This document shows positions 2,821-38,270 of a stretch of 42,112 bases of DNA, piece after piece. The DNA is from an uncultured Thermoanaerobaculia bacterium (GTDB lineage: Bacteria; Acidobacteriota; UBA4820; DSQY01), in contig CAZIBS010000004.1 of assembly GCA_964537405.1 (NCBI GenBank), positions 1 to 42,112 on the forward strand. Reading direction: 5' to 3'. The translations under genes and the position numbers were made by a program. Within the stretch, counting starts at the first letter, position 1. Each line of letters opens with the position of its first letter. Below the pieces are notes generated by a model. The model was not told where the DNA came from, searched no databases, and saw nothing but the letters and a program-made list of their open reading frames with translations.

Positions 2821-5160
2821 ATGCTCTCGGACCGTGTTAACCGTATCGGGTTTTCTCCAACGCTGCGAATAACGGCTAAGGCCAAACAGATGCGGGTTCA
2901 GGGAATCGACGTGGTGGACTTTTCGGTGGGGGAACCGGATTTTAATACCCCGGAAGCCGTCAAACGCGCGGCCAAGGCCGCTCTGGACGCCGACTTTACC
3001 AAGTACACCGCTAACGACGGTATACCGGAACTCAGGGCGGCCATCTGCGAAAAGCTGGAACGCGACAACAACCTCAAGTATGCCCCCAACGAGATAATCG
3101 TTTCGCCCGGCGCAAAAAACGACCTCTTCAACCTCATGCAGGCCCTGGTCGGTCCCGGCGACGACGTGATTGTTCCAACGCCATGCTGGGTCTCTTATCC
3201 TGACCAGGTAAGACTTGCGGGGGCGAACCCGGTTTTCGTGGAGACTCACGAGAACGAGGGCTTTCGCCTGGACGCGGGGGCGCTCTCCGACTCGGTGACT
3301 CCGAACACGAAGGCTATTATCCTCAACTATCCCTGCAATCCCACCGGGGCTTCCTACTCCAGGAAAGACCTGGAGGCGCTTGCCGAAGTCTGTCTCCGGG
3401 AGCAGATTTGGGTTGTAGCGGACGAAATATATGAGAAGCTTCTCTACGACGGGATGCGATTTACATCCATCGCCTCCGTGAGCGAGGCGATGAAAAAGTT
3501 GACCATAGTCGTGAACGGCTTTTCCAAGGCCTTTTCCATGACGGGTTGGAGGCTCGGTTACGCCGCCGGGCCGAGGGAAGTCATCGCGGCGTGCGGCAAG
3601 ATACAGTCCCACAACACCAGCAACGCCACCTCCTTCGTGCAGAAAGCCGCCGTAACGGCGCTTACCTCCTGTGCAATGGACGTGGAACGAATGCGACAGG
3701 AGTTCGAACGGCGCAGAAATTTTATGGTCGGCAAGCTGAGGAACCTACCGGAAGTGAGCTGCGTTTCGCCCTCCGGCGCCTTCTACCTGTTGCCGAATGT
3801 TAAAAGTTACCTTGGCAAGGAATACAAGGGCGCTCCCATCCGCAATTCCTACGGCCTCGCCTACTACCTCCTCAAGGAGGCCGCGGTTGCCGTGGTGCCC
3901 GGTGGCGCCTTCATGGCCGACGATTTTATTCGGGTCTCTTTTTCCACCTCCATGGATAGGCTCCAGGAGGGCGCCCGCAGAATCCGGGAGGCGCTTACGC
4001 GCCTCGAAGAACCTCGCCATGTGCGGCCGAGGGCGCTCAACAACGTTATCACCAAGGTTCGGGACTACGTAGAAACGCGCGCCGTCGCCGGGGCAGAGGA
4101 GCGAAACGAGCTGCTTGCCCTGGCGGAGCGCAGCCTCAAGCCGGACGCCTACTTTGAATGGAACGCGGTCATCGCGGGGGCGGTGGTCCAGTTGAGGACC
4201 AACTCCCCACACTTGGCGGACTTCTACCAGGAGAACTTCTATCCCTCGTCCCTCGAAAGCGACCTGGAACCGCACGCGGTTCTGTACGCCGTCAAGGATG
4301 TCGCCGATCGCGAAGCCCAGGCCCGCCTTAGCCTTGAAACGGGAACCGCCTATCTATTTAACTCGGCCTACTACGGTCAGGCCCGGATCCTCGCCCTCGC
4401 CCTCGCCGGCGAAGCTGCCTCCCGCGTATCGGGCGTTTTCCTTGCTCACTGCTCGGCGCTCGATAGAGACGGCCGCGGCGTTCTCGTCTGGGGGCTTCCG
4501 GGTTCGGGAAGAACCGGAGTGCTCGGCGCAGCGCTACACGCGGACGGAGTCAGGATGGTCGCCGGCGATGATATCATGGTGCGCTACACGACCTCCGGCC
4601 CCGTGGCCGACCTCCCGGAGAGAAAGTTCTACCTCAAGGCAAAGTGGGCAAAGTACCTTGGTGAAATCGACCGGCTGGCCGTAAGGTCAAAGGTGGAGAA
4701 CGCGGTGGTAAGAAGGGAGCAGTGTTCTATCGAATACTGTTCCGAACAGGACGTCTGCCCTCTGGATCTGGGAGCGGCGTGGTGCGGCAAGGCCTCCACT
4801 CACGGGCGCGTCATGCTGGATCCCTACTGGCTGGGCTGCGCCACGCGCCACGTTCGCAGGACCGCGCCGAAGCTGTGCGCCATCCTTGTGAATGACCCGG
4901 TCATACCGGCTCTCAAAGACCTTTCCCCGGGAGAAGCCGCGAGGTTGATCTCCGGCAACGGGAGTTCGGGAAGCGCCATTTTTGACCCTTCCCTTGCCGG
5001 CGCCATGGATCTTTCGCACCGGGACGCCCTTTTGACCCGCCACGAGGAACTCTTCGCCGGAACGAAGACCGTTCTCCTCAACACCGCCGTGGGTACGCCG
5101 GAGAGCGCCGCCGAACGGCTCCTGGACCTCTTGCCGGGGCCCGAACCCCGCTATGGTTGA
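2821..5160 (+). CDS. Class-I/II aspartate aminotransferase (aa 1 to about 395) fused to an HprK-like P-loop kinase-fold domain (aa about 400-779)
   Basis: The N-terminal half is a complete AspAT-type transaminase (GEPDFNTPEAVKRAA ... NYPCNPTG ... NGFSKAFSMTGWRLGY with the PLP lysine ... FIRVSF). The C-terminal half matches the HPr kinase/phosphorylase core layout (LAHCSALDRDGRGVLVWGLPGSGRTGVLGAALHADGVRMVAGDDIMV, compare HASaV ... GvLitGdSGvGKSe ... RGHrLVaDD). Its Walker-A reads GSGRT, with Arg in place of the canonical Lys. It is a single uninterrupted 779-codon frame. Confidence 0.8.
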   Translation: MLSDRVNRIGFSPTLRITAKAKQMRVQGIDVVDFSVGEPDFNTPEAVKRAAKAALDADFTKYTANDGIPELRAAICEKLERDNNLKYAPNEIIVSPGAKNDLFNLMQALVGPGDDVIVPTPCWVSYPDQVRLAGANPVFVETHENEGFRLDAGALSDSVTPNTKAIILNYPCNPTGASYSRKDLEALAEVCLREQIWVVADEIYEKLLYDGMRFTSIASVSEAMKKLTIVVNGFSKAFSMTGWRLGYAAGPREVIAACGKIQSHNTSNATSFVQKAAVTALTSCAMDVERMRQEFERRRNFMVGKLRNLPEVSCVSPSGAFYLLPNVKSYLGKEYKGAPIRNSYGLAYYLLKEAAVAVVPGGAFMADDFIRVSFSTSMDRLQEGARRIREALTRLEEPRHVRPRALNNVITKVRDYVETRAVAGAEERNELLALAERSLKPDAYFEWNAVIAGAVVQLRTNSPHLADFYQENFYPSSLESDLEPHAVLYAVKDVADREAQARLSLETGTAYLFNSAYYGQARILALALAGEAASRVSGVFLAHCSALDRDGRGVLVWGLPGSGRTGVLGAALHADGVRMVAGDDIMVRYTTSGPVADLPERKFYLKAKWAKYLGEIDRLAVRSKVENAVVRREQCSIEYCSEQDVCPLDLGAAWCGKASTHGRVMLDPYWLGCATRHVRRTAPKLCAILVNDPVIPALKDLSPGEAARLISGNGSSGSAIFDPSLAGAMDLSHRDALLTRHEELFAGTKTVLLNTAVGTPESAAERLLDLLPGPEPRYG

Positions 5161-5204
5161 TTCGGATAGCCGTGAAAAGCTCAACATATCGGATGTTCGG
5201 TAAA

Positions 5205-5237
5205 ATGGTGTTTCACTCATCAAGGGATTGGTAGCCT
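5205..5237 (-). repeat. Partial (about 30 bp) terminal fragment of the roughly 100-bp MITE-like element (see 9303-9402, 38174-38270)
   Basis: GGTGTTTCACTCATCAAGGGATTGG matches the reverse complement of the copy-B end (GGTGTTTTACCCATCAAGGGATTGGGG). Confidence 0.45.
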
Positions 5238-5384
5238 TCTGGCCGAAGGCCAGGAAGGCGCCAAGGGCGGGGTAGGAAGTAGTTGTTCCCTCTCCATTCC
5301 AAGAGATGCTTTTTTTCCCGGTAGAAACACCCGCGATTCGAAGACGCTGGCGTTTCAATCGCGGAGATTAGGTGGAAAGGAGCC

Positions 5385-6026
5385 ATGGAGAATACCCGCG
5401 CGGAAGAGATCGCTAATAGTATCACGCACGGACTAGGCGCAATTTTGAGCGTTGCGGGTGTATCGGTTCTCCTCAGCTTCGCTGTTTTGAGGGGAGGAGG
5501 GGCGTGGGTGGTTGTCGCTTGCAGCGTCTACGGCGCGAGCCTCGTGCTGCTCTATACCACTTCCACGCTCTACCACAGCTTTCCCTGGCCGGGAGTGAAA
5601 AGGCTCTTTCGGGTGCTGGACCACTCAGCCATCTTCATCCTGATAGCGGGCACCTACACCCCCTTTACACTCGTGTCGCTTCGTGGAGAGTGGGGATGGA
5701 GTCTCTTCGGAGTCATGTGGGGTCTCGCCATACTTGGCATTTCCACAAAGCCCTTTACCATTGATCGAATCCCTTTCTTATCCACCGTCATATACGTAGC
5801 GATGGGATGGATGATCGTCATCGCTATAAAGCCCGTTCTGGCTGCCGTTCCCGTGCTGGGACTGGTCTATATCTTCGCCGGCGGCATGGCTTACACACTG
5901 GGCACCATTTTCTACGGATGGAAACGATTGCCGCTCCACCACGCCCTTTGGCACCTCTTCGTACTCGCGGGAAGCATCCTCCACTTCTTAGCCGTGTGGG
6001 TCTCCGTCATTCCGGCCGCAAGGTGA
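5385..6026 (+). CDS. Hemolysin-III family (PAQR/YqfA-like) membrane channel protein
   Basis: The 213-aa protein has 7 predicted TM segments. The N-terminal EEIANSITHGLGA motif and C-terminal HALWHLFVLAGSILHF histidines are characteristic of HlyIII. An RBS (GGAAAGGAG) precedes the ATG. Confidence 0.85.
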   Translation: MENTRAEEIANSITHGLGAILSVAGVSVLLSFAVLRGGGAWVVVACSVYGASLVLLYTTSTLYHSFPWPGVKRLFRVLDHSAIFILIAGTYTPFTLVSLRGEWGWSLFGVMWGLAILGISTKPFTIDRIPFLSTVIYVAMGWMIVIAIKPVLAAVPVLGLVYIFAGGMAYTLGTIFYGWKRLPLHHALWHLFVLAGSILHFLAVWVSVIPAAR

Positions 6027-6206
6027 CCATACTGTGCCGGGAGAAGATAGAAACGGGGTCCGCGTCCTCGGTCGCGATGTTGGCCGGGGTCTTGCTTGCC
6101 CTCCGGAAGACGATGTTGACGAGGGCCGGGCCGCCCTCCCCTTCGCGCAGAAATGTTTGGGTCGGCCGTAACAAGGATTCGGCCGATCAACGATCGGCCT
6201 CCGGAG

Positions 6207-6371
6207 CCGCAAGCACTCATCCAGCCGTCGGGGTAATCCTTCCCACTCACATCAGGAACTCATGCTTCGTGGTATTCACCAGGAAAAAACTTGGCCATGG
6301 GGGTAACTCCTCAATTCCCAACGCACTACGAACCCTGTATCATCCGTTTTTAGCTGGAAGACCCACTTTAA
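6207..6371 (-). repeat. Copy 1 of a roughly 165-bp interspersed repeat, inverted relative to copy 2 at 25480-25648
   Basis: The reverse complement of 6207-6371 aligns end-to-end with 25480-25648 at about 85% identity (GGGTCTTCCAGCTAAAAACG ... GGTTCGTARTGCGTTGGG ... GAGTTCCTGA ... GTGGGAAGG ... ACCCCGACGGCT ... GATGAGTGCTTGCGG). The substitutions are mostly nonsynonymous in any shared frame and frames diverge at the ends, so it is not a conserved CDS. Confidence 0.6.
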
Positions 6372-6624
6372 GGCCCGGAGAGAATCGACGATAGGGCCGG
6401 CGCTGACCACCAGAACGTCCCAGCAGCGTTCGGTAACCGCGTCGAGAGGCAGTTGGAGAAGGTCGTTCGTTTTTATTTAATCTCGCGGTACAACCGTGGC
6501 CATTCACCCATTCGGCTTGTTCCAACTTGGACCACCGCCCCCGATTAATTCAGAATCCGTTGCGTGACCCTATTCGTGCAACGGGCTCTTCAGTGGTGCC
6601 AATTAAGCGAAGGTGCGGGAGCTG

Positions 6625-6652
6625 AAAAAGGGCGGGCATTTGCCCGCCCCTG
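6625..6652 (-). terminator. Rho-independent terminator downstream of the fadL-lipase operon
   Basis: The minus strand reads GGGGCGGGCAAATGCCCGCCC followed by TTTTTC. This is a 9-bp GC stem plus a T-tract placed 20 bp after the lipase stop. Confidence 0.6.
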
Positions 6653-6671: not shown

Positions 6672-7934
6672 CTAATGTCTCCGAAGAACGGGGTTCTGCG
6701 TCAGAATATCGAGGCTCTTCAAAGGTATGTCCGGCAGGACCACGTCCCTGGTGCTTGCGTAGCCCATCGGATCGGCGGCGCTGACGCTCTCAACGTTAAC
6801 CTTAGGTATGTGGGTTCCGTAGAAGTGGTTGACTTTGCCGATGAACCAGTTGGCGACGATGGCCTGGCCGGTCGGCGTGGGGTGAACGCCGTCAAGTCCG
6901 AAGATGCCTCCCAGGAACTTCGTGGTAAGCTTTTGGCCGTCGGGCATTGTGTACCCGTTCTTAACCAGCTTTTTGAACCGCTTGTGGATGTCCACAACCG
7001 GGAAACCGAAGGTGGCGCCGACCTGCTTGATGTAACTATTGTCTGCGTGGATTATGGCCCTGATCTGAAGAAGCTCCGCCCTGGTCAGGATTTCGTTTGG
7101 ATCAAGGGGCCCGGGATCCTTTCCTTCCATTATCTTTTTGATGTGCTTGTGGGAGAAAGGGGTGACGTAGTCCCTCTGGGTGATTCCCAGCTTCTTGAGG
7201 GGAAACCCGTGTTTTTCGAGGTAACGGCCGCTTGTCATCATGGGGATGGAAACAACGTCGGGAATGGTGGCAAGCACCATCCCGGCGCCGGTCGCGGCGA
7301 TTGTCTGTACGCTGGCCCCGTAGACCTGGGCAAAGACGGATGCGGGTACCGTGAAAGCGGGGTTCCCCAAAGCCGCTCCGCCGAGCACGTCGTTGCCCCC
7401 TATCCATAAGATCACGAAGGTCGGATGGAGCTGCGTGGCGAGTCCCACCTGGCTCAGGGGCGGGTAACCATCGATGTAGACCCACGGGAAGCCGAGGATT
7501 ATGTCGGTGATGTCGGAGGGTTGGGCGTTTGGTTTCTTCGTCAGCAGGTCGATCGAAGTCTGGCCGGGAACCGCCAGGTCGGTCGGCTGGTTCAGGGGGT
7601 TGATAAGGCTGCCCATTGTTTTACCGTCTTCAACTATGATCGGGAAGCCCGTAACCGGATCGAAGCCCTGGAGTCTCAGGGCGATGGGCATACCCGGATA
7701 GCTGATAAGCGGCAGGCTGAGCCGCTCTCCGGCCTGCTCGGCGAAGAGTTCGGCGTAGGAGCGGGGTTGGCCGTACTGGTTCAGGGAACCGTTGTAGTAG
7801 CCGGCGGAGAGGCTGTCCCCCAGGACGAGGATGTTGCTGAAATCGGGTGCGTTGGTACTTTTAGATTGAGCGAAGAGGGGCAGGGCCGGTAAGAGCCCGA
7901 CCGCCAGTAGAAAAAATAGCTTTTTGATCCACAT
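6672..7934 (-). CDS. Secreted SGNH/GDSL-family lipase/esterase
   Basis: It has a signal peptide (MWIKKLFFLLAVGLLPALPLFAQS) and GDSL block I (ILVLGDSLSAGYY). The C-terminal DGVHPTPTG supplies the catalytic Asp-x-x-His. An AGGAGG RBS precedes the ATG at 7934. Confidence 0.85.
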   Translation of the reverse strand: MWIKKLFFLLAVGLLPALPLFAQSKSTNAPDFSNILVLGDSLSAGYYNGSLNQYGQPRSYAELFAEQAGERLSLPLISYPGMPIALRLQGFDPVTGFPIIVEDGKTMGSLINPLNQPTDLAVPGQTSIDLLTKKPNAQPSDITDIILGFPWVYIDGYPPLSQVGLATQLHPTFVILWIGGNDVLGGAALGNPAFTVPASVFAQVYGASVQTIAATGAGMVLATIPDVVSIPMMTSGRYLEKHGFPLKKLGITQRDYVTPFSHKHIKKIMEGKDPGPLDPNEILTRAELLQIRAIIHADNSYIKQVGATFGFPVVDIHKRFKKLVKNGYTMPDGQKLTTKFLGGIFGLDGVHPTPTGQAIVANWFIGKVNHFYGTHIPKVNVESVSAADPMGYASTRDVVLPDIPLKSLDILTQNPVLRRH

Positions 7935-9206: not shown

Positions 9207-9302
9207 TACACTCTCCTCTAAGGTTTAGAACCCCATTTTTTCCACATCACGACCCATACCAATTTAGTTTAATATGATTCGGCAAAGAAGTCCATAGGGT
9301 AT

Positions 9303-9402
9303 CCCTAATCCCTTGATAAATTAAGCGCCATAGGCGCGAAACCGTGGACCGTAAAGTCTTTCCTGGCTATCCGCATCAACCATCGCGGGCGGGATTGGGG
9401 AC
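9303..9402 (+). repeat. MITE-like roughly 100-bp element with 10-bp terminal inverted repeats, copy A
   Basis: CCCTAATCCCTTGAT ... GCGCGAAACCGTGGACCG ... AGTCTTTCC ... TCCGCATCA ... CGCGGGATTGGGGAC is about 80% identical to 38174-38270. The ends CCC(T/C)AATCCC and GGGATTGGGG are reverse complements. Confidence 0.65.
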
Positions 9403-9813
9403 CAACCCGAATCCGCCACCTAACCGAGGGCCGGGGGCGGAGGGTAGGGCTTGGATGCTGGAACCTATCCCGGAATAAGACATGGCCGCGATAGATGGTG
9501 AGGAAGCGAACGAAGGCCGATGTGGTGCATCGGATGAGCAAGACGACAAAACCGGGTGCGCGGCCGGTCCCGCCCCTTCGGGTTGTCCTCCGGCCTGTCG
9601 CCTTCATTGTTCCCCCTTTTCCGAGTGTCCCCGGCACGCGTCGTCGGGACGCCTCGAATCCGTTCCGGCCGGAGGCGCAACGCGCCCGGAACTCCAGACA
9701 GGCGCAACGTGGTAGGCAGGCGAATCCCGGTTCAGGTGGTGGATCCATGAATGCTCCCCGCCTTGCCCCTTTGAGTGTGGTGCGCTATTCTCTCTGGGTC
9801 GGGAAGGGTTCGG

Positions 9814-12189: not shown

Positions 12190-12495
12190 CCCTCCCGCGG
12201 ACCTTGCGCGATAGGAGGGGCTTCCAGCCCCGAAGGGTGCTAATCCCGCACACCCATATTTCGCGGCAGGATGCCGTTCCCATGGATGATGTCCCCCTAC
12301 CGGTTGGTCCGGGGTCCAACCGTCCGATTCCGGACGCGCTTCGCTTGCCGGAATGACAGGGGAACAGTCGTTATTCCCGCACCTCCCTTCGTCATTCCCG
12401 CAAAAGCGGGAATCCACAACATTGACTGGATCCCCGATGTCTCGGGGATGACGGCACCAGGAGGGGCTTACAGCCCCGAAGGGTGTTTCTTAACC
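12190..12495. repeat. Cluster of stacked hairpin repeat units (BIME-like) in the ftsK-cvpA intergenic region
   Basis: Several perfect hairpins are present: GGGGCTTCCAGCCCC (12203), ATTCCCGCAAAAGCGGGAAT (12404-12425), CCCCGATGTCTCGGGG (12444-12459) and GGGGCTTACAGCCCC (12466-12480). The units GGAGGGGCTTACAGCCCCGAAGGGTG and TCGCGGCAGGATGCC recur at 35292-35353. CTTGCCGGAATGACAGGGGAA (12346-12366) recurs inverted at 35705-35727. Confidence 0.7.
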
Positions 12496-17546: not shown

Positions 17547-18710
17547 GTGGGCGTGCCTTTTCTGGATTTGACGAGGCAGTACGAAACGATCAGGGAAGAG
17601 ATCGGGGGTGTTCTTACACAAGTGCTTGAAACGCAGCGCTTTGTCCTTGGACGCTTCGTTCGCTCCCTGGAAGAGGAAATCTCCGAATACATCGGAACGG
17701 GCCACGCGATCGGCGTGGCTTCCGGCACCGACGCTCTGCTGCTTGGCCTCAGGGCGCTGGGACTTAAGCGAGGTGAGGGAGTTATCACCTCAACCTTCAC
17801 TTTCTTCGCAACCGCGGGGGCCATCCACAACGCCGGGGGGCACCCCTTCTTTCTGGACATAGACCCGGAAAGCTTCAACCTCTCTCCCGCGGCCGTTGGA
17901 ACCTTCCTACGCGAAGAGTGCGTAAGGGGCGACGATGGATTGCCCGTACATCGCAAAAGCGGGGCGATTGTCAGGGCGATCCTTCCGGTTCACCTCTACG
18001 GCCTTTGCGCCGATATGGACGCACTGAACGACCTCGCGGGTGAATACGGGCTCCGCGTTCTTGAAGACGCCTGCCAGGCTATTGGTTCCACCTATCATCG
18101 GAGGAAGGCCGGCGCACTCGGCGACATCGCCGCCTTCTCTTTCTTCCCCACGAAGAACCTGGGAGGGGCGGGCGACGGCGGCATGGTGACGACCGACGAC
18201 GACGCCCTTGCGCAAAAGCTGGCCCTCCTGAGGGTTCACGGAAGCAGTAAACGCTACATCCACGAAGTCATAGGCTACAATTCCAGGCTCGACGAGCTTC
18301 AGGCGGCGGTACTGGGAGTAAAGCTCAGGCATCTCGACGAGTGGAACGCCGGACGAAATCGTATAGCCGGTTTCTATAGAGAGGGCTTGGCTGACGTCGA
18401 AGGGGTAAGAACACCTTTGTTTCATGAGGGTTTTGGCCAAATCTTCCACCAGTTTGTTATACGAACCACGCACAGGGATGAGTTGAAAGCCTATCTCGAC
18501 GAGAGGGAAATAGGCGCCATGATTTACTACCCGGTCCCACTCCACCTCCAGCCCTGTTTTCATTTCCTGGGCTACCGCGAGGGAGACTTCTCCGAAGCGG
18601 AGTCGGCCTCAAGGGAAGTCCTGGCTCTTCCCATCTTTCCCGAACTGACCGAGGCCGAAGCAACAGAGGTCTGCGATGTTGTCAGGGACTTCCACGCGGG
18701 GAGAGACTGA
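17547..18710 (+). CDS. DegT/DnrJ/EryC1/StrS-family PLP-dependent sugar aminotransferase
   Basis: The N-terminus IPFLDLTRQYETIREEI, the motifs GTDALLLGLRALGL ... ILPVHLYG ... SFFPTKNLGGAGDGGMV (PLP lysine in FPTKN) identify the family. A GTG start has a strong GGAGGTG RBS. Confidence 0.85.
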   Translation: MGVPFLDLTRQYETIREEIGGVLTQVLETQRFVLGRFVRSLEEEISEYIGTGHAIGVASGTDALLLGLRALGLKRGEGVITSTFTFFATAGAIHNAGGHPFFLDIDPESFNLSPAAVGTFLREECVRGDDGLPVHRKSGAIVRAILPVHLYGLCADMDALNDLAGEYGLRVLEDACQAIGSTYHRRKAGALGDIAAFSFFPTKNLGGAGDGGMVTTDDDALAQKLALLRVHGSSKRYIHEVIGYNSRLDELQAAVLGVKLRHLDEWNAGRNRIAGFYREGLADVEGVRTPLFHEGFGQIFHQFVIRTTHRDELKAYLDEREIGAMIYYPVPLHLQPCFHFLGYREGDFSEAESASREVLALPIFPELTEAEATEVCDVVRDFHAGRD

Positions 18711-19228
18711 TGTTGTCGGACCTCTCTAATGCTCACCGGGTTTGGGGAGTCTTCTCCGTCAAGCCGCGCCATGAGAAACTGAATGAGGTCTTTCTCTCGC
18801 AGGAAGGTTTTAACTACTACTGTCCCCGGCTGAAGAGACGCAAGGGAGAGGAGAGCGGACCGCCTCTCTTCCCGGGCTACATCTTCGTACTGCTCTCTCC
18901 CAAGGTGGAACTGGGCCGGGTAAAATTTTTTCCGGGCATGCTGCACCCGCTTCTCTTCGGCGGCCTGCTTGCGTACATCAACCCGGAAGTCGTGGAGTGC
19001 TGGAAGAAGAGGGAGGCCGGCAGGGGCTACCTTGCGCCGGAGCCGAAAGCGGCCTTCAAGGTAGGACAGAAGGTCCGTTTTACCGAGGGCGCTTTCACCG
19101 GTCTCGAAGGCATGGTTCTGGAGGACCTCCCCGCGAAGGATCGAGTGCGCATACTCCTGGAATACCTCAGGATGAGCGTTACCGTTGAAACCGACCGCAC
19201 GGCCGTAAAAATGCCCCCGGCGCGATGA
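18710..19228 (+). CDS. NusG-paralog transcription antiterminator (UpxY/LoaP/RfaH-like specialized NusG)
   Basis: It has an NGN domain (VWGVFSVKPRHEKLNEVFLSQEGFNYYCP ... PLFPGYIFVLL). A KOW motif follows (FKVGQKVRFTEGAFTGLEGMVLE ... RVRILLEYLRMSVTVE). The ATG overlaps the DegT stop (TGATG). Confidence 0.7.
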   Translation: MLSDLSNAHRVWGVFSVKPRHEKLNEVFLSQEGFNYYCPRLKRRKGEESGPPLFPGYIFVLLSPKVELGRVKFFPGMLHPLLFGGLLAYINPEVVECWKKREAGRGYLAPEPKAAFKVGQKVRFTEGAFTGLEGMVLEDLPAKDRVRILLEYLRMSVTVETDRTAVKMPPAR

Positions 19229-22380: not shown

Positions 22381-23448
22381 ATGCCCATGAAGACCATCCT
22401 GGTAACCGGCGGAGCCGGATTCATAGGAGCCAATTTTACAAGATACTTGCTGGAATCGAGTCCGAAGTCGCGCGTCGTGGTCCTCGACGCCCTGACCTAC
22501 GCCGGAAACCTCGAGAATCTGTCCGGGCTGGAGGGGCAATATCCGAAGCGTTACCGTTTTGTAAAGGCCGACATCACCGACAGGGATGCCGTGTTGAGGC
22601 TTTTCAGCGACGAATCGGTGACCGGGGTCATCCACTTTGCCGCGGAAAGCCACGTGGACAGGTCTATACTGGAGCCCCTGGCCTTCGTAAAAACCAACGT
22701 GCAGGGTACCGCAAACCTTCTCGACGCCTGCCGGAAATCATGGTCGGCGGGTGAGGAGGGACGCTTTCTACAGGTTTCCACCGACGAAGTCTACGGCGCC
22801 CTGGGGAAAACCGGTTTTTTTTCCGAGAACACCCCGCTGGACCCCAGTTCTCCCTACTCCGCCAGCAAGGCCGCGGCCGATCACCTGGTGTTGGCCTACC
22901 ACAGGACCTTCGGGCTCGACACCGTCATAACCCGTTGCTGCAACAACTATGGTCCCTACCAGTTTCCGGAGAAACTGATTCCACTGATGATAGCGAGGCT
23001 CCTGGACGGTAAGACCCTCCCGGTCTACGGCAAGGGGGAGAACGTGCGCGACTGGATCCACGTTCGGGACCACAACCTCGGGGTTCTTCTCGCCTTCGAA
23101 AAGGGCCGAGCCGGAAGCGTTTACAACCTGGGCGCAAGGTGCGAAAAGAGCAACATAGACCTCGTCAAAGCACTCATTCGCGAAGTGGCGGTCGTAAAGG
23201 AACTGGACCCATCCAGCCTTGAAAAACGGATAACCTTCGTAAAAGACCGTCCCGGCCACGACTGGCGATACGCAATAGATCCATCCAAAGCCGAGAAGGA
23301 ACTCGGCTTTTATCCGGGAGTTTCCTTCGACGAGGGACTTCGCGCAACCGTCGATTGGTACATCGCCAACGAGAGATGGTGGCGCAGGGTTATGAGCGGA
23401 GAGTACCGCACTTTCGTCGAACAACTCTATGGAAAGGGTTCCGGGTGA
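22381..23448 (+). CDS. rmlB: dTDP-glucose 4,6-dehydratase
   Basis: It has ILVTGGAGFIGANF ... VVLDALTYAGNLENL ... HFAAESHVDRS ... STDEVYG ... YSASKAAADHLVLAYHRTFGL. An AAGGAGAACA RBS is present. Confidence 0.9.
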   Translation: MPMKTILVTGGAGFIGANFTRYLLESSPKSRVVVLDALTYAGNLENLSGLEGQYPKRYRFVKADITDRDAVLRLFSDESVTGVIHFAAESHVDRSILEPLAFVKTNVQGTANLLDACRKSWSAGEEGRFLQVSTDEVYGALGKTGFFSENTPLDPSSPYSASKAAADHLVLAYHRTFGLDTVITRCCNNYGPYQFPEKLIPLMIARLLDGKTLPVYGKGENVRDWIHVRDHNLGVLLAFEKGRAGSVYNLGARCEKSNIDLVKALIREVAVVKELDPSSLEKRITFVKDRPGHDWRYAIDPSKAEKELGFYPGVSFDEGLRATVDWYIANERWWRRVMSGEYRTFVEQLYGKGSG

Positions 23449-24452
23449 AACACCTGCTGGTAACCGGCGGCGGCGGTTTTGTCGGCGGCAACTTCGTCCG
23501 CCTCGTTCTAAGAGAACGCCCCTCTCTGAAGGTTACGGTCTTTGACAGCCTCACCGGCCGAAAAAACGCACCCGTACTGGACGAACCGGCAAAACGCTAT
23601 CCGGAGCGCTTCGAACTTATCAGGGGCCACGTTACCAGTAAAGCCGACCTTGAAGCCCTTTTTTCAACGCGCACCTTCGATACGATTGTTCACTTCGCGG
23701 CAAAGAATCCGTCGGGAGACGATATTGTTGACCCCGGGGCTTTCGTGGAGGTCAACATTATTGGCACCGCCATGCTTCTTGAAACCGTTCGCGCTGCGTG
23801 GAAAGAAGGGGAAGGAACCTTCCTGCACCTATCCTCTTACGAGGTTTACGGTTCGGATGAATCACGGGTTTTCACCGAGGGCTCACCCCTGAACCCTTCG
23901 ACACCCTACGCCGCCAGCAAGGCCTCAGCCGACCAACTCACGCTCGCATACCACCGAACCTACAACATGAGAACCCTCGTAACCCGAACGACCAATATCT
24001 ACGGTCCCTACCAATCGAGGGACAAGTTGATTCCCGCCATCGTGGACCGGGTGAAACGCAGAAAAACCATCCCCGTCTTCGGTAACGGTCTCAACCGCCG
24101 CGATTGGATTCACGTTGACGACCACAACCGTGGAGTGCTTTTAACCCTCGAAAAAGGGAAAGCCGGCGGCGTCTACCTCCTCGGGGCCAGGTGCGAAAGA
24201 ACCAACCTCGAACTTGTTCACCGGGTGGCGAGGTTGGCGGCCGCCGGTCTCGGACGGTCGATGGAGGAAGCAGAGGGACTCATAGGTTTCGTCCGGGACC
24301 GCGAAGCCCACGACGCGAGCAGGTCCATGGACCCTTCGGCCACCGAAGAAGCCCTGGGCTTCAAAGCAGCCATTCCCTTCGACGAGGGGCTGAAAGCCAC
24401 GGTGGAGTGGTTGCTGAAAAACTCCCCATACCCGGAACCTATCCGGGAATAA
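23445..24452 (+). CDS. Second NAD-dependent sugar dehydratase/epimerase (RmlB paralog)
   Basis: A GTG start overlaps the rmlB stop (GTGA). It has LLVTGGGGFVGGNF ... HFAAKNPSGDDIVDPGAFVEVNIIGT ... SSYEVYGS ... YAASKASADQLTLAYHRTY. It shows about 45% identity to the upstream RmlB by eye. Confidence 0.75.
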   Translation: MKHLLVTGGGGFVGGNFVRLVLRERPSLKVTVFDSLTGRKNAPVLDEPAKRYPERFELIRGHVTSKADLEALFSTRTFDTIVHFAAKNPSGDDIVDPGAFVEVNIIGTAMLLETVRAAWKEGEGTFLHLSSYEVYGSDESRVFTEGSPLNPSTPYAASKASADQLTLAYHRTYNMRTLVTRTTNIYGPYQSRDKLIPAIVDRVKRRKTIPVFGNGLNRRDWIHVDDHNRGVLLTLEKGKAGGVYLLGARCERTNLELVHRVARLAAAGLGRSMEEAEGLIGFVRDREAHDASRSMDPSATEEALGFKAAIPFDEGLKATVEWLLKNSPYPEPIRE

Positions 24453-24519: not shown

Positions 24520-25302
24520 ATGTGGAACACGGACCTTATTTTCGTTCACGGCGCTTGGGAGGGGCCCTGGATTTTTAGGAGTTGGAGCGCATACTTTGCC
24601 GAAGAGGGATGGTCCGTTCGAAGCATCACCCTTCCCGGCCACGGTCCCGGTGAGGATCCCCGGAGATTCGGTCTCATCGATTACGCCGAAGCGGTGGAAG
24701 CTGCGATTCGGAACCCGGAACGCACGGTCCTCATCGGCCACAGCATGGGTGGATGGACCATTCTCAAGGTACTGGAGTCCCTCAAGGTCGCGGCGAGCGT
24801 CCTTCTGGCGCCGATACCCCACAGAGGGCTTTCGCTTAAAACGATGAAGGCTCTCGTCGGCATGACCCGTGGGCGCACCCTTTCGGCCATGCTTCTCGGC
24901 AAGCCGCCCCGGTTGGACGAAAGAACCGTCCGGGACGTTTGCTTCACGGAAGGGACGTCGAAAACAATCCTCAAACGCTTCATGAAGGAGAGCGTGGCCG
25001 AGAGCCCCAAGGCGTTGAGGGAAATCGCATTGTTGCCCCTGAGGTTTCCGGGAAGCGTGAGAGTGCGCGTGTCGCGCCTGGCTAAAGCCCAGCGCGGACG
25101 CCCAAGCCTTATCGTTGCTTCCAGTGCGGATTTCTTCGTAAAACCCGCCGAATTGGAGAAAACCGCCACCCTGCTTGGCGCCGAGATGCTTAGCCTCCAG
25201 GAATATCCTCACTGTTTTTTCTACACCGATTCCGGCTTAAGCGTTGCCCATAGGGTGCAGGAATGGCTTGCAAACCACGTAGACTCCAACCCGGGTCTTT
25301 GA
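24520..25302 (+). CDS. Alpha/beta-fold hydrolase
   Basis: It has a nucleophile elbow (GHSMGG) and the typical N-terminal strand (IFVHGAWEGPW). An RBS (GGGAGG) is present. Confidence 0.7.
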   Translation: MWNTDLIFVHGAWEGPWIFRSWSAYFAEEGWSVRSITLPGHGPGEDPRRFGLIDYAEAVEAAIRNPERTVLIGHSMGGWTILKVLESLKVAASVLLAPIPHRGLSLKTMKALVGMTRGRTLSAMLLGKPPRLDERTVRDVCFTEGTSKTILKRFMKESVAESPKALREIALLPLRFPGSVRVRVSRLAKAQRGRPSLIVASSADFFVKPAELEKTATLLGAEMLSLQEYPHCFFYTDSGLSVAHRVQEWLANHVDSNPGL

Positions 25303-25479
25303 GCCTGTTGCACGACTCCGGTACGCGCTTTTGTAGAAAAATTCGGCTTCGTAAAATGGCCGAGGATCAACGAGAATGACTAAACCTATACAAAATGACC
25401 CCCTGTAAAACACCAAAGATGTCAATTTTGCACTTCGTGCAACAGCCTCCTTCCCTGATTTTTTCGATTGCCGACACTC

Positions 25480-25648
25480 TTTAGAGCGGGTCTTCCAGCT
25501 AAAAACGAATGGCGCATGGTTCGTAATGCGTTGGGGATTAAGGGGTTACCCTGTCACGGCAAAGTTTCTTCCTGGTGGACACCACGACGCCTGAGTTCCT
25601 GACGTGGGTGGGAAGGCTCACCCCGACGGCTTGATGAGTGCTTGCGGC
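25480..25648 (+). repeat. Copy 2 of the roughly 165-bp repeat, ending about 60 bp upstream of the mpl start
   Basis: See 6207-6371. The two copies are about 85% identical and in opposite orientations. Confidence 0.6.
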
Positions 25649-25709
25649 CATGGGGCCGTCGCCGCAAATTATGCCGGGTAATGGTAAGATGGAAAAATAT
25701 GGAGGCTGG

Positions 25710-27137: not shown

Positions 27138-27851
27138 ATGGAAGTGAAGTGCGCCAACTGCGGGGCGAAGATTCCGCTCAAGGTGGACGTCCCCTTTCTT
27201 TCGTGCCCCTTCTGCGCTTCGACCCTCTACCTTGACCGCTCCCACACCTTTAACCACTATCTTCTGAAACCCTCCATCTCGAAGACGCGAGCCCTGGATC
27301 TCCTCAAAGAGGAGCTGGAGAAGAGGGAACTGTCCCGGCTTCCCGTTCTGGAAACCAGGGGAAAACTTCTCCCTTTTTGGAGAAAACGCGGCGGGGAAAG
27401 TCTTGAAACCATACCGGCTTTTCCGCCGCCCCACCCCGCTCTGGAAGGCTACCACCTTCCCCCCTCCGGCGCGGAACTATACGATGAAGCGCCGGAAGGG
27501 TTTGAAGAGGTTGCCTGTTCGGAGTCCTCTTCGGCCCATTGGGAGAGCGGCGGGGACACCAATGCCTTCAGTCTTTTCCATATTCCCTTCTACGAAATAA
27601 CCACCGGTTCGCACAGGGTTAGGTACACAATTTGGATAGACGCGGTTTCAGGTCGGCTCTTTCTTGACCAGGCGCCGCCTTCGCTGACGGGGAAGATATC
27701 GTCCCGCTTCTGGGGCGCCCTCGTGGTCCTGTTTCTTCTTTTTTTCGGCGAAGCGATCGTGCTTCCGGGAGTATGGGCTTTTGTGGCCGTAGTGGTTACC
27801 GCGGCCGGCGTTTTTCCCCTGCTGGCGAACTTTTTTGAGGGGGGCGGCTGA
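27138..27851 (+). CDS. Uncharacterized zinc-ribbon protein with C-terminal double TM anchor (paralog 1 of 3)
   Basis: It has an N-terminal CxxC-x14-CxxC (CANCGAKIPLKVDVPFLSCPFC) and the motif LLPFWRKRGG. A DAVSGRLFLD beta-hairpin-like motif and two C-terminal TM helices follow. An AGGAG RBS is present. Confidence 0.6.
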   Translation: MEVKCANCGAKIPLKVDVPFLSCPFCASTLYLDRSHTFNHYLLKPSISKTRALDLLKEELEKRELSRLPVLETRGKLLPFWRKRGGESLETIPAFPPPHPALEGYHLPPSGAELYDEAPEGFEEVACSESSSAHWESGGDTNAFSLFHIPFYEITTGSHRVRYTIWIDAVSGRLFLDQAPPSLTGKISSRFWGALVVLFLLFFGEAIVLPGVWAFVAVVVTAAGVFPLLANFFEGGG

Positions 27852-29002
27852 TGGCCGGGCCCAGAGCGTTATCGTGTCCGTCGTGCGGGGGCGCTGTTTT
27901 GCCTCCACTGGGGTCGAGAAAGACCGGGTGCGAATTCTGCGGCAAGGCTTTCTACTACGCGGGCAAAGACTTTCTGCCGCGTTTGGCTCTGCGGTCGAAT
28001 CTCAGCGAGGAAGGGCTTCACGACGTCTGCATGGACCTTTTCAAAGGGCTCGCCGTGCCCGGGGATCTCGCTCGAAGGGCGCTTCTTCTGCAGAAGCACA
28101 GGATGTATCTACCCTTCTACTTTATGACCGGCAAGCGCGGCGGGATTTTGCAGACCAACAAAGAGCGCATCGACCATTCGTGGAAGCCGCTTAGCGTTGT
28201 AGATAGAATGGCGGCCGGTTCGGGAGAAATCTCCGTCAGCCCCGTCCCTCACCGTCGGCCGGAAGTGATCGTGGAAGAGGACAGCAGCGTGGTCCTGGGG
28301 GACTTTCAGTATCTCTACCAGGCCGTTTCGCTTGAAAACTGGAACTTCTCCGACGCCGACCTTGAAGCTTCCGTGCTTTCAAGGCTTGGAGAAGCCAGGC
28401 CCGTAACCCTGGGAGAACTTGTAAAAAGTGGGAAGATAGCGGACGTCTCCATTCCCCTGGAGACGGTCATAGCAAAGGGAGTAGGCACGGGGGGTACGAG
28501 GGCCGGTGCGTTGGAGGTCCTGGAACTCACGGTTGTTGTCGTATACGTTCCCGTGCGGATAGTCACGTTCCGCTACGGACAGGCCATCTTCAACGTGGTA
28601 GTGGAGGAGTTGGAAGGCCGCGTTGTCTCGGGCAGTTTGCCCTTCCGGAGGGGCTGGGCCTTCCTGGGCGGGCTGACTCTCATCGCAGGTTTAGGTTTCT
28701 TTATCGGACAGTTTGCCCGCACCATAATTGAGATGGTTTCCGAAACCCCCGCCCAAGCGAACAGCTATCTCGAAACCGCAAAGATCCTCGGGGTTCTGTG
28801 CGTCGTTATTGCTCTTGTTGCCACGGCCGGATTGAACGCGGCCTGGCTCTTCTTCAGGACGCCTTACTTCCTGAAGCTTACGAGCAAGGGCGGTAGGCTC
28901 GAATCGCCAATAGAGCTTCCCCGCAGTCCTCTCAACCCGGTAAACGCGCTCATCAAAGCATTCTTCAGGCGGGCTTTACCGGTGGAAAGGGGAGACGAAT
29001 GA
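27851..29002 (+). CDS. Uncharacterized zinc-ribbon membrane protein (paralog 2 of 3)
   Basis: Its ATG overlaps the upstream stop (TGATGG). It has CPSCGG-x14-CEFCG and YLPFYFMTGKRGG. An LEGRVVSGSLPF motif and two TM helices follow. Confidence 0.6.
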   Translation: MAGPRALSCPSCGGAVLPPLGSRKTGCEFCGKAFYYAGKDFLPRLALRSNLSEEGLHDVCMDLFKGLAVPGDLARRALLLQKHRMYLPFYFMTGKRGGILQTNKERIDHSWKPLSVVDRMAAGSGEISVSPVPHRRPEVIVEEDSSVVLGDFQYLYQAVSLENWNFSDADLEASVLSRLGEARPVTLGELVKSGKIADVSIPLETVIAKGVGTGGTRAGALEVLELTVVVVYVPVRIVTFRYGQAIFNVVVEELEGRVVSGSLPFRRGWAFLGGLTLIAGLGFFIGQFARTIIEMVSETPAQANSYLETAKILGVLCVVIALVATAGLNAAWLFFRTPYFLKLTSKGGRLESPIELPRSPLNPVNALIKAFFRRALPVERGDE

Positions 29003-29628
29003 TGGTGGAGCGAAAAGAACGCCTTCTCATTCCCCTTACCTGCCCGGAGTGCGGGGACGACCTCGACGGAGGAAACGGCGCCCGTATATACCTCTGCCGT
29101 GAATGCTCCTACGCCCTCTTCATGGAAAGACCGGGGGAGAAGTACCCCGTACGCTACGTAAAGGCGCACGTAAAAGCGGCTTCTCAGAGGGTCTATGTTC
29201 CTTTTTGGAGAGTCACCGGAACCTTCAAGGCGTCGGGCGCGAATAAGAAACAGTCTATCGGATACGGCAGGATACGGTCCCTGGGGCCGCTGTACTTCCC
29301 GGCTTTCTGGAGTCCCAGGCTCGGCTACTTCGATAACCTTACGCTGACCTACTCGAAGGAGGAGGCGAAGATGGCCTTTGAAGAGGGCCGGGACGACGCG
29401 ATTCTCGACGGAATAAGGGACCCGGCCATTCTGACCGAAATGGCGCGCCTTACCTGGCTGGGATACCTCGACCGCTTCAGCGACGTTACGGGCCTGGAAG
29501 GTCGTTACGAAGTCAAGGATATTCTTTACGCGGGAGTCCCCTTCTTTCCTGACGGAGACCATTTTATGGACGGAGTTTCGGGGGTGCGCATTCCTAAAGG
29601 GTTTCTACCCCTCGGAAGCGGCGAATGA
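28999..29628 (+). CDS. Uncharacterized soluble zinc-ribbon protein (paralog 3 of 3)
   Basis: Its ATG overlaps the upstream stop (AATGATGG). It has CPECGD-x13-CRECS, YVPFWRVTG, and a C-terminal DGVSGVRIP motif. No TM segment is present. Confidence 0.6.
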   Translation: MMVERKERLLIPLTCPECGDDLDGGNGARIYLCRECSYALFMERPGEKYPVRYVKAHVKAASQRVYVPFWRVTGTFKASGANKKQSIGYGRIRSLGPLYFPAFWSPRLGYFDNLTLTYSKEEAKMAFEEGRDDAILDGIRDPAILTEMARLTWLGYLDRFSDVTGLEGRYEVKDILYAGVPFFPDGDHFMDGVSGVRIPKGFLPLGSGE

Positions 29629-33674: not shown

Positions 33675-35215
33675 GGTTTCCCTTGGCCCTCGCGGCGGGG
33701 GTTATCCTGTGGGCCCTGTCGCTCCCTCCATACGGCTTTGGAATCCTTGCAATAGTTGCCTTCATTCCCCCTCTCACGGTGTTACCGGACGAGACCCCTG
33801 GAAGAGTGGCGGCGTGGGGTTGGCTCGGCGGAGCCGCGTGGGAGTTTGTCACGCTCTGGTGGTTGATCCCAACGCTGACCAACTACGGCGCCATCTCCCT
33901 ACCGGTTGCCACGCTCCTTATCCTGGGAATGTGCGCCGTACTCGGTCTTTACATGGCCGGCTTCCTCGGCCTCCTCTGCGCCATAACGAAGAGAAGGGGA
34001 GAGGGCGCGCTACTCCTGGCGCCGTTCCTGTGGGTTCTCTGGGAGTGGCTGAGGGGCCACCTCTTCACCGGCTTCCCGTGGTGGGGGCCGGGCTACGGGC
34101 TCAGCGTCTACCAAGCCTTCCTGCAAACCACGAGGATCGCCGGCATTCTTGGTCTCTCGTTTCTGGCCGTCGGTACCGCCTCGGCCGTTGCACTCTACCT
34201 TCGCGAGAGAACCCACCCCGCCGCACTTGTCGGCGTGCCGGTATTCCTCGTGCTGCTCCTCACCGCCTTTATCTGGGGGGCGTGGCAGGATGGTCGGCCG
34301 ATAACGCCGAAACCCGAAGAAAGGGTCGGCTACCTCCAGCCCAATATACCGCAGGATCAGAAGTGGAACCACACCTACGCCGAAGCTACGATGCAAAGGT
34401 TCGAAAACCTCTCCCTGGCCTTCAAACACTACCGCTTGAAACTCCTCGTCTGGCCCGAATCGAGCACTCCCTTCGAATGGGACGAGGACCAGACCTTCCG
34501 CGACAGGGTGATGAAGATTGCGCGCGCCGACGATGCACCCATCCTGCTGGGAACCGTCACGGACTCCGGCAAGGGCTATCAGAACTCCGCGATTCTTCTT
34601 ATGCCGGACGGCAAAGTCGCCGGGCGCTACGCCAAGATCCACCTGGTGCCCTTCGGAGAGTATGTTCCACTCCGAAGGTGGCTCTTCTTCGCCAGGCCCA
34701 TCGTCGATACCATAGGAGACTTTGTTCCCGGCAAAGAGGGGGCGCCGCTTCAGACACCCGCCGGCAAGGTCGGGGTTACCATCTGCTACGAGGGAATCTT
34801 TCCGGAACTCGTACGGCGTAAGGTGCGGGCAGGGGCGGAACTCCTCGTCAACATGACCAACGACGCATGGTACAAAGGTACGCCTGGGCCGGTCCAGCAC
34901 TTTCTCATGGAGAGGGTCAGGGCCGTGGAGACCGACCGCTACCTCATTCGCAGCGCCAACGAAGGCGTCAGCGGCATTGTTGATCCTCGCGGGCGCCTCG
35001 AAAGTACCACTCCACCCAATACCGCGGCCTCCTTTTGGGGCCTGGTGGAGCCGAGGCGTACAGAAACCCTATGGACGCGCATCGGCGACTTCTGGCTTTT
35101 CATCCCCCTCCTCGTAGTTCTTGCCGCCTTCCTTCCCGGACGAAGGCACCAGGGGTGGGGAAGGACCGGCCCTCCCCGTTTCAGAAAATGCTTTTTTTCC
35201 AGGGAGAAACACTAA
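33623..35215 (+). CDS. lnt: Apolipoprotein N-acyltransferase
   Basis: It has a multi-TM N-terminal half and a CN-hydrolase domain (KLLVWPESSTPFEWDED ... AILLMPDGKVAGRYAKIHLVPFGEYVP ... TICYEGIFPEL ... LLVNMTNDAWY). The start is ambiguous, overlapping recG by 52 bp. Its last 25 nt coincide with a short interspersed motif. Confidence 0.8.
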   Translation: MGRKVARYLGFLRKDWLRFPLALAAGVILWALSLPPYGFGILAIVAFIPPLTVLPDETPGRVAAWGWLGGAAWEFVTLWWLIPTLTNYGAISLPVATLLILGMCAVLGLYMAGFLGLLCAITKRRGEGALLLAPFLWVLWEWLRGHLFTGFPWWGPGYGLSVYQAFLQTTRIAGILGLSFLAVGTASAVALYLRERTHPAALVGVPVFLVLLLTAFIWGAWQDGRPITPKPEERVGYLQPNIPQDQKWNHTYAEATMQRFENLSLAFKHYRLKLLVWPESSTPFEWDEDQTFRDRVMKIARADDAPILLGTVTDSGKGYQNSAILLMPDGKVAGRYAKIHLVPFGEYVPLRRWLFFARPIVDTIGDFVPGKEGAPLQTPAGKVGVTICYEGIFPELVRRKVRAGAELLVNMTNDAWYKGTPGPVQHFLMERVRAVETDRYLIRSANEGVSGIVDPRGRLESTTPPNTAASFWGLVEPRRTETLWTRIGDFWLFIPLLVVLAAFLPGRRHQGWGRTGPPRFRKCFFSREKH

Positions 35216-35289: not shown

Positions 35290-35730
35290 CAAGGGATTTT
35301 CCGTAGGAGGGGCTTACAGCCCCGAATTGGTTGATGGAGGTTCGCGGCAGGATGCCCCTCCTACAACAAGATTGTGATTCGTTTTGTTGAAACAACATCC
35401 CGCCGCGGATTAGTAAGGCAAACCCCATTGTCAAGACCCTTTTCTCCGAGAAACGTGGTATACAATCCGCACCTCCTTCCATTGAGCGAGTGAAGCCGGG
35501 TGAGCAGGTGGGTGTATATCATGGTGGTTTCACATCACCGTGGCAGCGGGGTTCCTGGACCTTCGGGATATCCTGCCGCTTCTTTCAGGTTCCACTCCTC
35601 CTTTACCTTCATTATCTTACGCCTCTTCCGGTGGGAAGCAAGCCCCCTGGTCCCGGAAGCCCGGTCGCCATCCAGCCGTCCGATTCCCGACGAGTTGGAA
35701 TGACGGCTTTCCCCTGTCATTCCGGCAAGC
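35290..35730. repeat. Second BIME-like hairpin-repeat cluster (lnt-rpmB intergenic)
   Basis: GTAGGAGGGGCTTACAGCCCCGAATTGG ... TCGCGGCAGGATGCCCCTCCTAC (35292-35353) has 10-bp outer inverted arms and matches 12195-12290. GGAATGACGGCTTTCCCCTGTCATTCCGGCAAGCGGAGCACGTCCG (35690-35735) is the inverted counterpart of 12336-12366. Confidence 0.7.
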
Positions 35731-35835
35731 GGAGCACGTCCGCAATCCGGCCGAGCCCATCGCTGATTTTGGGGGGAAGGTTGCAAAGACGCCGGCTTTC
35801 TGCTATAAAGAGCGGTTCGTGGAAGGAGTTTCACC

Positions 35836-36027
35836 ATGTCTAGAGTATGTGATATCTGTGGTAAGAAACCTGGAGTAGGCAATAATATCAGCCATGCGCA
35901 CAACCTGACGAAGAGGCGCTGGCTTCCGAACCTTCAAAATGTTAAGGCCAAGGTAAACGGCCAGACCAAGACCATGCGCGTCTGCACAAAATGCCTCAAG
36001 GCTGGTAAGGTTCAGAAGGCCGGTTAA
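35836..36027 (+). CDS. rpmB: 50S ribosomal protein L28
   Basis: The 63-aa protein reads [34 protein letters not shown] ... [21 protein letters not shown] is present. Confidence 0.9.
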
Positions 36028-38089: not shown

Positions 38090-38173
38090 ATGGTTTCTCC
38101 TCCGCCGTTCCAAATAAACCAACAGAAGTTATTATACTCCTCCCTGGAGAGAAGAATACAACGCTTCCTAAAT

Positions 38174-38270
38174 CCCCAATCCCTTGATGGGTAAAACACC
38201 GTAGGTGCGAAACCGTGGACCGCGGAGTCTTTTCCGACTTTCCGCATCACCCGTCGCGGGATTGGGGACT
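38174..38270 (+). repeat. MITE-like roughly 100-bp element, copy B (perfect 10-bp TIR CCCCAATCCC / GGGATTGGGG)
   Basis: It aligns with 9303-9402. It overlaps the last 24 nt plus stop codon of the minus-strand radical-SAM gene. Confidence 0.65.

Follow-up and report, generated by a model that had tools for sequence, protein, structure and literature searches.

A non-coding sequence of ~190 bp occurs twice, in opposite orientations and 19 kb apart, in the DNA of an uncultured bacterium, which raises the question of what kind of element the pair represents. The DNA in question, referred to here as the window, is a contiguous stretch of 42,112 nucleotides, and its Mpl and lipase homologues place the lineage among uncultured Acidobacteriota, the nearest Mpl being 66% and the nearest lipase 81–82% identical. 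The original prediction, made from the sequence alone, described a ~165-bp element, proposed that it belongs either to a family of small structured RNAs or to the MITEs, and suggested that recombination between the copies could invert the DNA between them. The reading preferred here, to which a probability of roughly 40% is given, is that both sequences belong to one dispersed repeat family, intergenic, non-coding and specific to the lineage.

Extent and identity of the two copies

The members of the pair are as follows.

Copy 1: 6195..6390, + strand; best-conserved core 6203–6372; found by repeat search and self-BLASTN, and present in contig L004.
Copy 2: 25464..25658, − strand (inverted); found by repeat search and self-BLASTN, and present in part in contig L024.

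The copies share 81–87% identity and are interrupted by a single 2-nt indel. Self-BLASTN aligned 6195–6388 with 25464–25658 at 80.6% identity over 196 columns (E = 4e-42), while an inverted-repeat search returned two adjoining arms parted by the indel, the first spanning 6206–6299/25555–25648 (94 nt, 87%) and the second 6301–6388/25464–25551 (88 nt, 78%). The repeat unit is ~190 bp and so longer than the 165 bp first stated, with its right end at ~6390 and its left end possibly at 6195; one end of it reads GCCGCAAGCACTCATC. For the interval originally proposed, 6207–6371 against 25480–25648, global alignment gives 141 identical positions of 169 (83.4%), near the ~85% that had been claimed. One 19-mer of the element has exactly two occurrences in the window, where 0.03 would be expected.

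The ends of the repeat are sharp, as had been predicted, since local alignment of the 110-nt flanks yields scores within the range of dinucleotide shuffles (fractions of shuffles scoring at least as high as observed, 0.89 and 0.18). A MAFFT alignment had hinted at similarity extending into the flanks, but this was not significant against the same shuffles. The possibility that the similarity belongs to a longer stretch of duplicated gene, which the prediction itself had raised as a way in which it might fail, did not hold: the element is a discrete non-coding repeat with unrelated flanks.

Both copies were recovered in independent assemblies of the same population. Contig L004 carries copy 1 in full, with 99.9% identity overall and zero differences inside the element, and contig L024, which starts within copy 2, matches the first ~80 nt of that copy at 100%. 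The pair therefore does not result from misassembly, and the existence of an element repeated in inverted orientation 19 kb apart is established by the repeat search, self-BLASTN and these contigs together.

Genomic context

Both copies are intergenic. Copy 1 is flanked by two convergent genes 645 bp apart, hlyIII (5385–6026, +) and a GDSL lipase gene (6672–7934, −), so that the 3′ ends of both neighbours face it. fadL lies upstream of the lipase gene, and ~6620–6650 contains a strong hairpin that resembles a bidirectional terminator. Copy 2 lies inside a 407-bp gap that separates an alpha/beta hydrolase gene (24520–25302, +) from mpl (+), which encodes murein peptide ligase. The true start of mpl is at 25710, as judged from a 472-aa database protein, P0001, with 100% identity and coverage, and copy 2 ends 52–60 nt 5′ of this ATG.

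The gene content attributed to the 19-kb segment between the copies was borne out by Pfam, which identified GDSL lipase, FadL, FtsK, RmuC, transketolase and a dTDP-rhamnose/sugar cluster. A NusG-like paralogue (18710–19228, +) is found in the sugar-nucleotide cluster, adjoining a DegT-type aminotransferase, and 22390–24452 (+) holds a tandem pair of dTDP-glucose 4,6-dehydratase-like paralogues with 59% nucleotide identity over 990 nt. No transposase was found in the window by Pfam, and a scan for tRNA and tmRNA genes returned none.

Coding capacity and divergence

The prediction had noted a peptide, AASTH.AVGV.LPTH.RNS..VV.TRKKL, shared by the two copies, and had concluded that the element is nevertheless not a protein gene. 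The peptide is indeed found in both copies, and the conclusion is upheld. Stops occur in five of the six frames, and the 2-nt indel shifts and so breaks the sole frame that is shared. The mismatches fall in codon phases 5/5/4 before the indel and 5/10/7 after it, displaying no codon periodicity, and the first 33 codons of the shared frame contain 4 synonymous and 8 non-synonymous changes. A six-frame peptide query against a database of 5.8 billion protein clusters gave no match at E ≤ 10. When the open frame of copy 1 was run through HMMER against 1.84 billion representatives, 3 weak matches came back, each a translation of eukaryotic tandem repeats (satellites). A protein-coding gene or pseudogene fragment is thus ruled out by the mismatch phases, the indel, the stops and the absence of homologues.

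The copies have diverged uniformly. Their mismatches are evenly spread and unclustered in bins, with 21 transitions to 12 transversions, and the longest identical run is 20 nt as against 20.7 nt in shuffles. No conserved seed-like or motif-like block was found between them. The even spread of mismatches fits the neutral decay of a once-identical duplicate.

RNA structure and regulatory signals

The suggestion of a small structured RNA finds no support. Rfam returned no match at the gathering score for the whole window or for the two small regions, and at E ≤ 10 nothing lay over either copy save a chance match of 14.6 bits (gathering score 50). The folding z-scores of each copy on each strand, relative to shuffles, are close to zero (−0.60, +0.28, −0.38 and −0.29). 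RNAalifold produced a consensus of −27 kcal/mol in the orientation first proposed and of −39 kcal/mol on the opposite strand; the latter contains 48 pairs and 8 one-sided changes, all of which keep pairing. As a control, the same 33 substitutions were placed at random 400 times. Relative to this control the consensus energy has p ~0.45 in the first orientation and ~0.10 on the opposite strand, and the structure conservation index (0.53 and 0.67, respectively) has p 0.73 and 0.32, so that the consensus fold is no better than random substitutions would leave it. Two sequences are too few for compensatory changes to be assessed statistically and cannot prove structure absent; nothing here indicates a structured RNA.

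Signals for independent transcription are similarly unshared between the copies. A sigma-70-like site, TTTCCA-16-CATAAT, ends ~10–18 nt before copy 2 in the orientation first proposed and is not conserved at copy 1. No intrinsic terminator is conserved at either end of the element, the lone terminator-like hairpin of copy 2 being destroyed in copy 1. A promoter-like hit at 6315–6343 inside copy 1 has no counterpart in copy 2, and a sigma-54-like motif at the end of copy 1, TGG-N8-TTGC, is without its GG in copy 2.

These observations bear on the idea that each copy is a gene for a small regulatory RNA of ~190 nt, the two being paralogous, specific to the lineage and transcribed apart from their neighbours. 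The size and intergenic location of the copies fit such genes, as do the promoter-like site before copy 2 and the 8 pairing-neutral changes of the opposite-strand consensus. Known paralogous sRNA families such as OmrA/B, PrrF1/2, Qrr1–4 and 6S-1/6S-2 likewise involve intergenic copies of 100–200 nt with 80–90% identity. Such families, however, keep their promoter, their seed or structural core and their terminator, whereas the element described here diverges uniformly and conserves none of these; the Rfam result, the z-scores and the conservation index within the random range likewise weigh against it. Paralogous sRNA genes are accordingly considered improbable, at about one chance in five.

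A second functional proposal is that a cis-regulatory module has been duplicated, either as the mpl promoter or 5′ leader at copy 2, or as an outward-facing promoter contained in the repeat. The short distance from copy 2 to the mpl start codon is in keeping with this. Furthermore, the region found upstream of mpl in relatives has been replaced here, so that the mpl promoter must come from the gap that holds copy 2. A cis-regulatory role is argued against by the inconsistent orientation of the copies to their neighbouring genes and by the position of copy 1 between convergent genes, with no downstream gene on either strand. Neither is there a conserved promoter-like site inside the element, the single hit at 6315–6343 being confined to copy 1, and the sigma-54-like motif is disrupted in copy 2. 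This proposal is regarded as the least probable of those weighed here.

Relationship to mobile and palindromic elements

The element was also examined for the hallmarks of MITEs. A search of each copy ±50 nt (seed 6, minimum 8 nt) revealed no terminal inverted repeats common to both, and reading of the junctions revealed no target-site duplication, the best candidate at copy 1 being CGAT(C)/CGAT(A) with nothing at copy 2. The designation of MITE in its strict sense therefore fails. There are nevertheless clear similarities to MITEs such as Correia/NEMIS of Neisseria and RUP of S. pneumoniae, which are also shorter than 300 bp, non-coding and intergenic, have discrete ends and unrelated flanks, and occur in more than one copy in either orientation, mutually diverged and restricted to a lineage. 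Unlike these, the present element is without terminal inverted repeats, target-site duplication or fold-back structure, and no parent IS or transposase was seen in the window.

No long self-complementarity was detected in the element, and its DNA and RNA folds are no more stable than those of shuffles; a palindromic repeat of the REP/ERIC type was rejected on these grounds. Subterminal hairpins at both ends, as in PATEs derived from IS200/IS605, were looked for with DNA folds of the four copy ends, which gave z-scores of −1.8, −1.1, +0.5 and +0.5. The hairpins near the left ends are situated beyond the conserved unit, their sequence is not the same in the two copies, and they do not clearly exceed what chance would give.

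A likeness in size and location is also found among the intergenic mosaic repeats, namely ERIC/IRU of enterobacteria, BIMEs, the RIMEs and Sm-repeats of rhizobia and BOX of pneumococcus, which measure 100–200 bp and are confined to intergenic DNA. ERIC, REP and RIME are imperfect palindromes, whereas the element here is not palindromic and displays no excess folding stability. No similarity to known intergenic mosaic repeats was found in the collections searched.

Other repeats in the window and searches for further copies

The 190-bp element is not alone in the window. At least four further significant dispersed repeat families, R1–R4, are present in the same 42 kb, wholly or mostly in intergenic DNA, although at some copies of R1 and R2 an end overlaps the final codons of ORFs that were called mechanically.

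R1: 9301–9453 (+), 38172–38320 (+) and 5140–5231 (−) by repeat search; three copies, 67–80% identical, of a ~95–115-nt element at 9301–9410, 38172–38280 and 5135–5236.
R2: 5254–5330 and 35142–35212; 73–81% identical; a GC-rich hairpin followed by ATGCTTTTTTTCC.
R3: 1222–1263 and 9703–9744, inverted; 93% identical; intergenic.
R4: 12326–12377 and 35697–35747, inverted; 88–92% identical; intergenic.

R1 is bounded by a terminal inverted repeat or closing stem of 11–17 nt, TCCCCAATCCC(TTGATG)...(CATCA)..GCGGGATTGGGGA, and has a consensus fold of 24 pairs with a few compensatory changes. It has no Rfam match, and in appearance it comes closer to a MITE or structured RNA than the 190-bp element does. 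One copy of R2 closely follows an aminotransferase-fusion gene and the other is at the 3′ terminus of lnt; the two have the appearance of a shared terminator-type module. R4 contains a REP-like palindrome, ATTCCGG...CCGGAAT. The fadL–ftsK gap (~570 nt) carries R1 and R3, and the lnt–rpmB gap (~620 nt) carries R2 and R4. These long gaps are mosaics, each with at least two unrelated modules, and in this co-occurrence they resemble the intergenic mosaic repeats of other bacteria.

Two of the genes that border these modules are of separate note. The fusion gene (2821–5160, +) encodes a 779-aa protein in which a class I/II aminotransferase (residues 30–388) is joined to a C-terminal half of ~380 aa that has no Pfam match and contains a P-loop-like motif, GLPGSGRTG. 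The rpmB assignment refers to a small protein at 35836–36027 (+), resembling ribosomal protein L28 by eye, which occupies the gap after lnt and is missing from the list of long ORFs.

Further copies of the 190-bp element were sought with k-mers drawn from its best-conserved stretches. A 19-mer gave 3 matches in 185,579 GTDB species genomes, an 18-mer 18 matches in JGI metagenomes and a 16-mer 14 matches in IMG/VR; on checking with BLASTN and nhmmer all proved to be matches of the k-mer only. Plasmid and phage collections yielded no match by BLASTN at word size 11. These negative results from DNA collections are weak, because the lineage is absent from them and the window's own sequence is unmatched there too. 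Within the window, the best candidate for a weak extra copy had an nhmmer E-value of 3.5. The orthologous loci of relatives lack the element on both the mpl side (L025–L028 and L046) and the fadL–lipase side (L043–L045), and 346 kb of relatives' loci contain none of the repeat modules seen in the window. In the part of the literature on MITEs in Acidobacteria that was seen, nothing evidently concerns this element.

Only two copies have actually been observed, and this counts against a dispersed repeat, as does the lack of the terminal inverted repeats, target-site duplication, convincing end hairpins and transposase in the window by which known mobile elements are recognised. The number of families in the window points the other way. 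A two-copy family in a genome of a few Mb would fit into one 42-kb window with a probability of ~1%, and five families do so, which suggests that many copies may exist genome-wide. A very high copy number is weakly argued against, because the 5.8 billion protein clusters, which include the MAG's own proteins, contained no spurious ORF read through another copy, and the HMMER matches were due to chance.

Gene order and the origin of the pair

In comparison with relatives, gene order is broken precisely within the gaps that carry copies 1 and 2. In L043, L044 and L045 a FAD oxidoreductase gene, rather than a convergent hlyIII, is located 92 bp downstream of the lipase gene and on the same strand. 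In L025, L027 and L046 mpl is divergent from an RnfC/BMC operon and is not beside the hydrolase gene and rhamnose cluster, while the order of the six genes 3′ of mpl is kept. The location of the copies at two order breaks constitutes mild evidence only, because synteny blocks at such evolutionary distance extend over just 2–7 genes. The absence of the element from relatives' orthologous loci, where order breaks, is in keeping with recent gain of the element in DNA prone to rearrangement.

Some further features of this region may be recorded. The RnfC-like and BMC-domain (microcompartment shell) pair occupies 7812–9790 of L025, 3141–5119 of L027 and 1546–3524 of L046, and in the window's genome is not found at this location. 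Directly after mpl, three genes without a Pfam match (237, 383 and 209 aa) span 27138–29628 (+); they are followed by genes for an AMP-binding enzyme, recG and lnt, an order kept in all relatives examined (L025, L027 and L046). The post-mpl block is a conserved and operon-like unit with no assigned function.

The prediction had also envisaged inversion of the 19-kb segment by homologous recombination between the copies. This is unsupported. Six contigs from the same population are all collinear with the window, although none of them spans copy 2. In E. coli, the minimal efficient processing segment for RecA-dependent recombination is ~23–27 bp, and mismatch repair is a barrier to recombination between diverged sequences. 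RecA-dependent exchange should therefore be very inefficient between copies that are 17% diverged and have no identical run longer than 20 nt, and inversion by this route is unlikely. More speculatively, the pair might be either two genes for a new, Acidobacteriota-specific regulatory RNA that works through base-pairing and has little stable structure, or a recognition site at which a site-specific system inverts the ftsK–tkt–rhamnose segment of 19 kb; taken together these ideas are given only around one chance in eight.

Another possible origin is a single local event. According to this explanation the pair is the functionless scar of one inverted duplication over a distance of ~19 kb, arising for example through inversion with staggered breaks or through template switching, and there are only two copies. 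The proximity and inverted arrangement of the copies, their location where order differs from all relatives examined, their neutral divergence and the failure of the searches to find another copy are all as such an event would leave them. Reversing an inversion between the copies, however, creates lipase–mpl and hlyIII–hydrolase junctions, neither of which is present in relatives, and restores neither the lipase–FAD oxidoreductase nor the RnfC/BMC–mpl arrangement, so that one event is insufficient. Moreover, each of the four other repeat families would need a local event of its own, and there is no GC-skew discontinuity at the copies, although this measure is uninformative on a recent inversion. 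The local scar is therefore thought unlikely, at around one in four, while being more probable than any of the functional explanations.

The preferred explanation remains a dispersed intergenic repeat. A discrete unit of DNA would have been copied into intergenic, rearrangement-prone regions, perhaps through a transposition-like, non-autonomous mechanism, perhaps through ectopic recombination or repair. Since then they would have drifted apart neutrally to ~83% identity, and more copies would be expected elsewhere in the genome. Nothing suggests that the repeat unit now encodes a protein or a folded RNA.

Significance

The element is real and most likely an ordinary orphan repeat, one of the interspersed non-coding repeats that form a broad class in bacteria. 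On present evidence its significance is small: it contributes an uncharacterised interspersed repeat to what is recorded of a phylum that has been little studied. It also draws attention to the long intergenic regions of this MAG as mosaics of lineage-specific repeat modules, and repeats of this kind both break short-read assemblies and mark sites that are prone to rearrangement. Should the element be transcribed, it would become a new sRNA candidate. Should it prove to have many genomic copies, it could serve as a strain marker and as an entry point to the mobile DNA of the Acidobacteriota.
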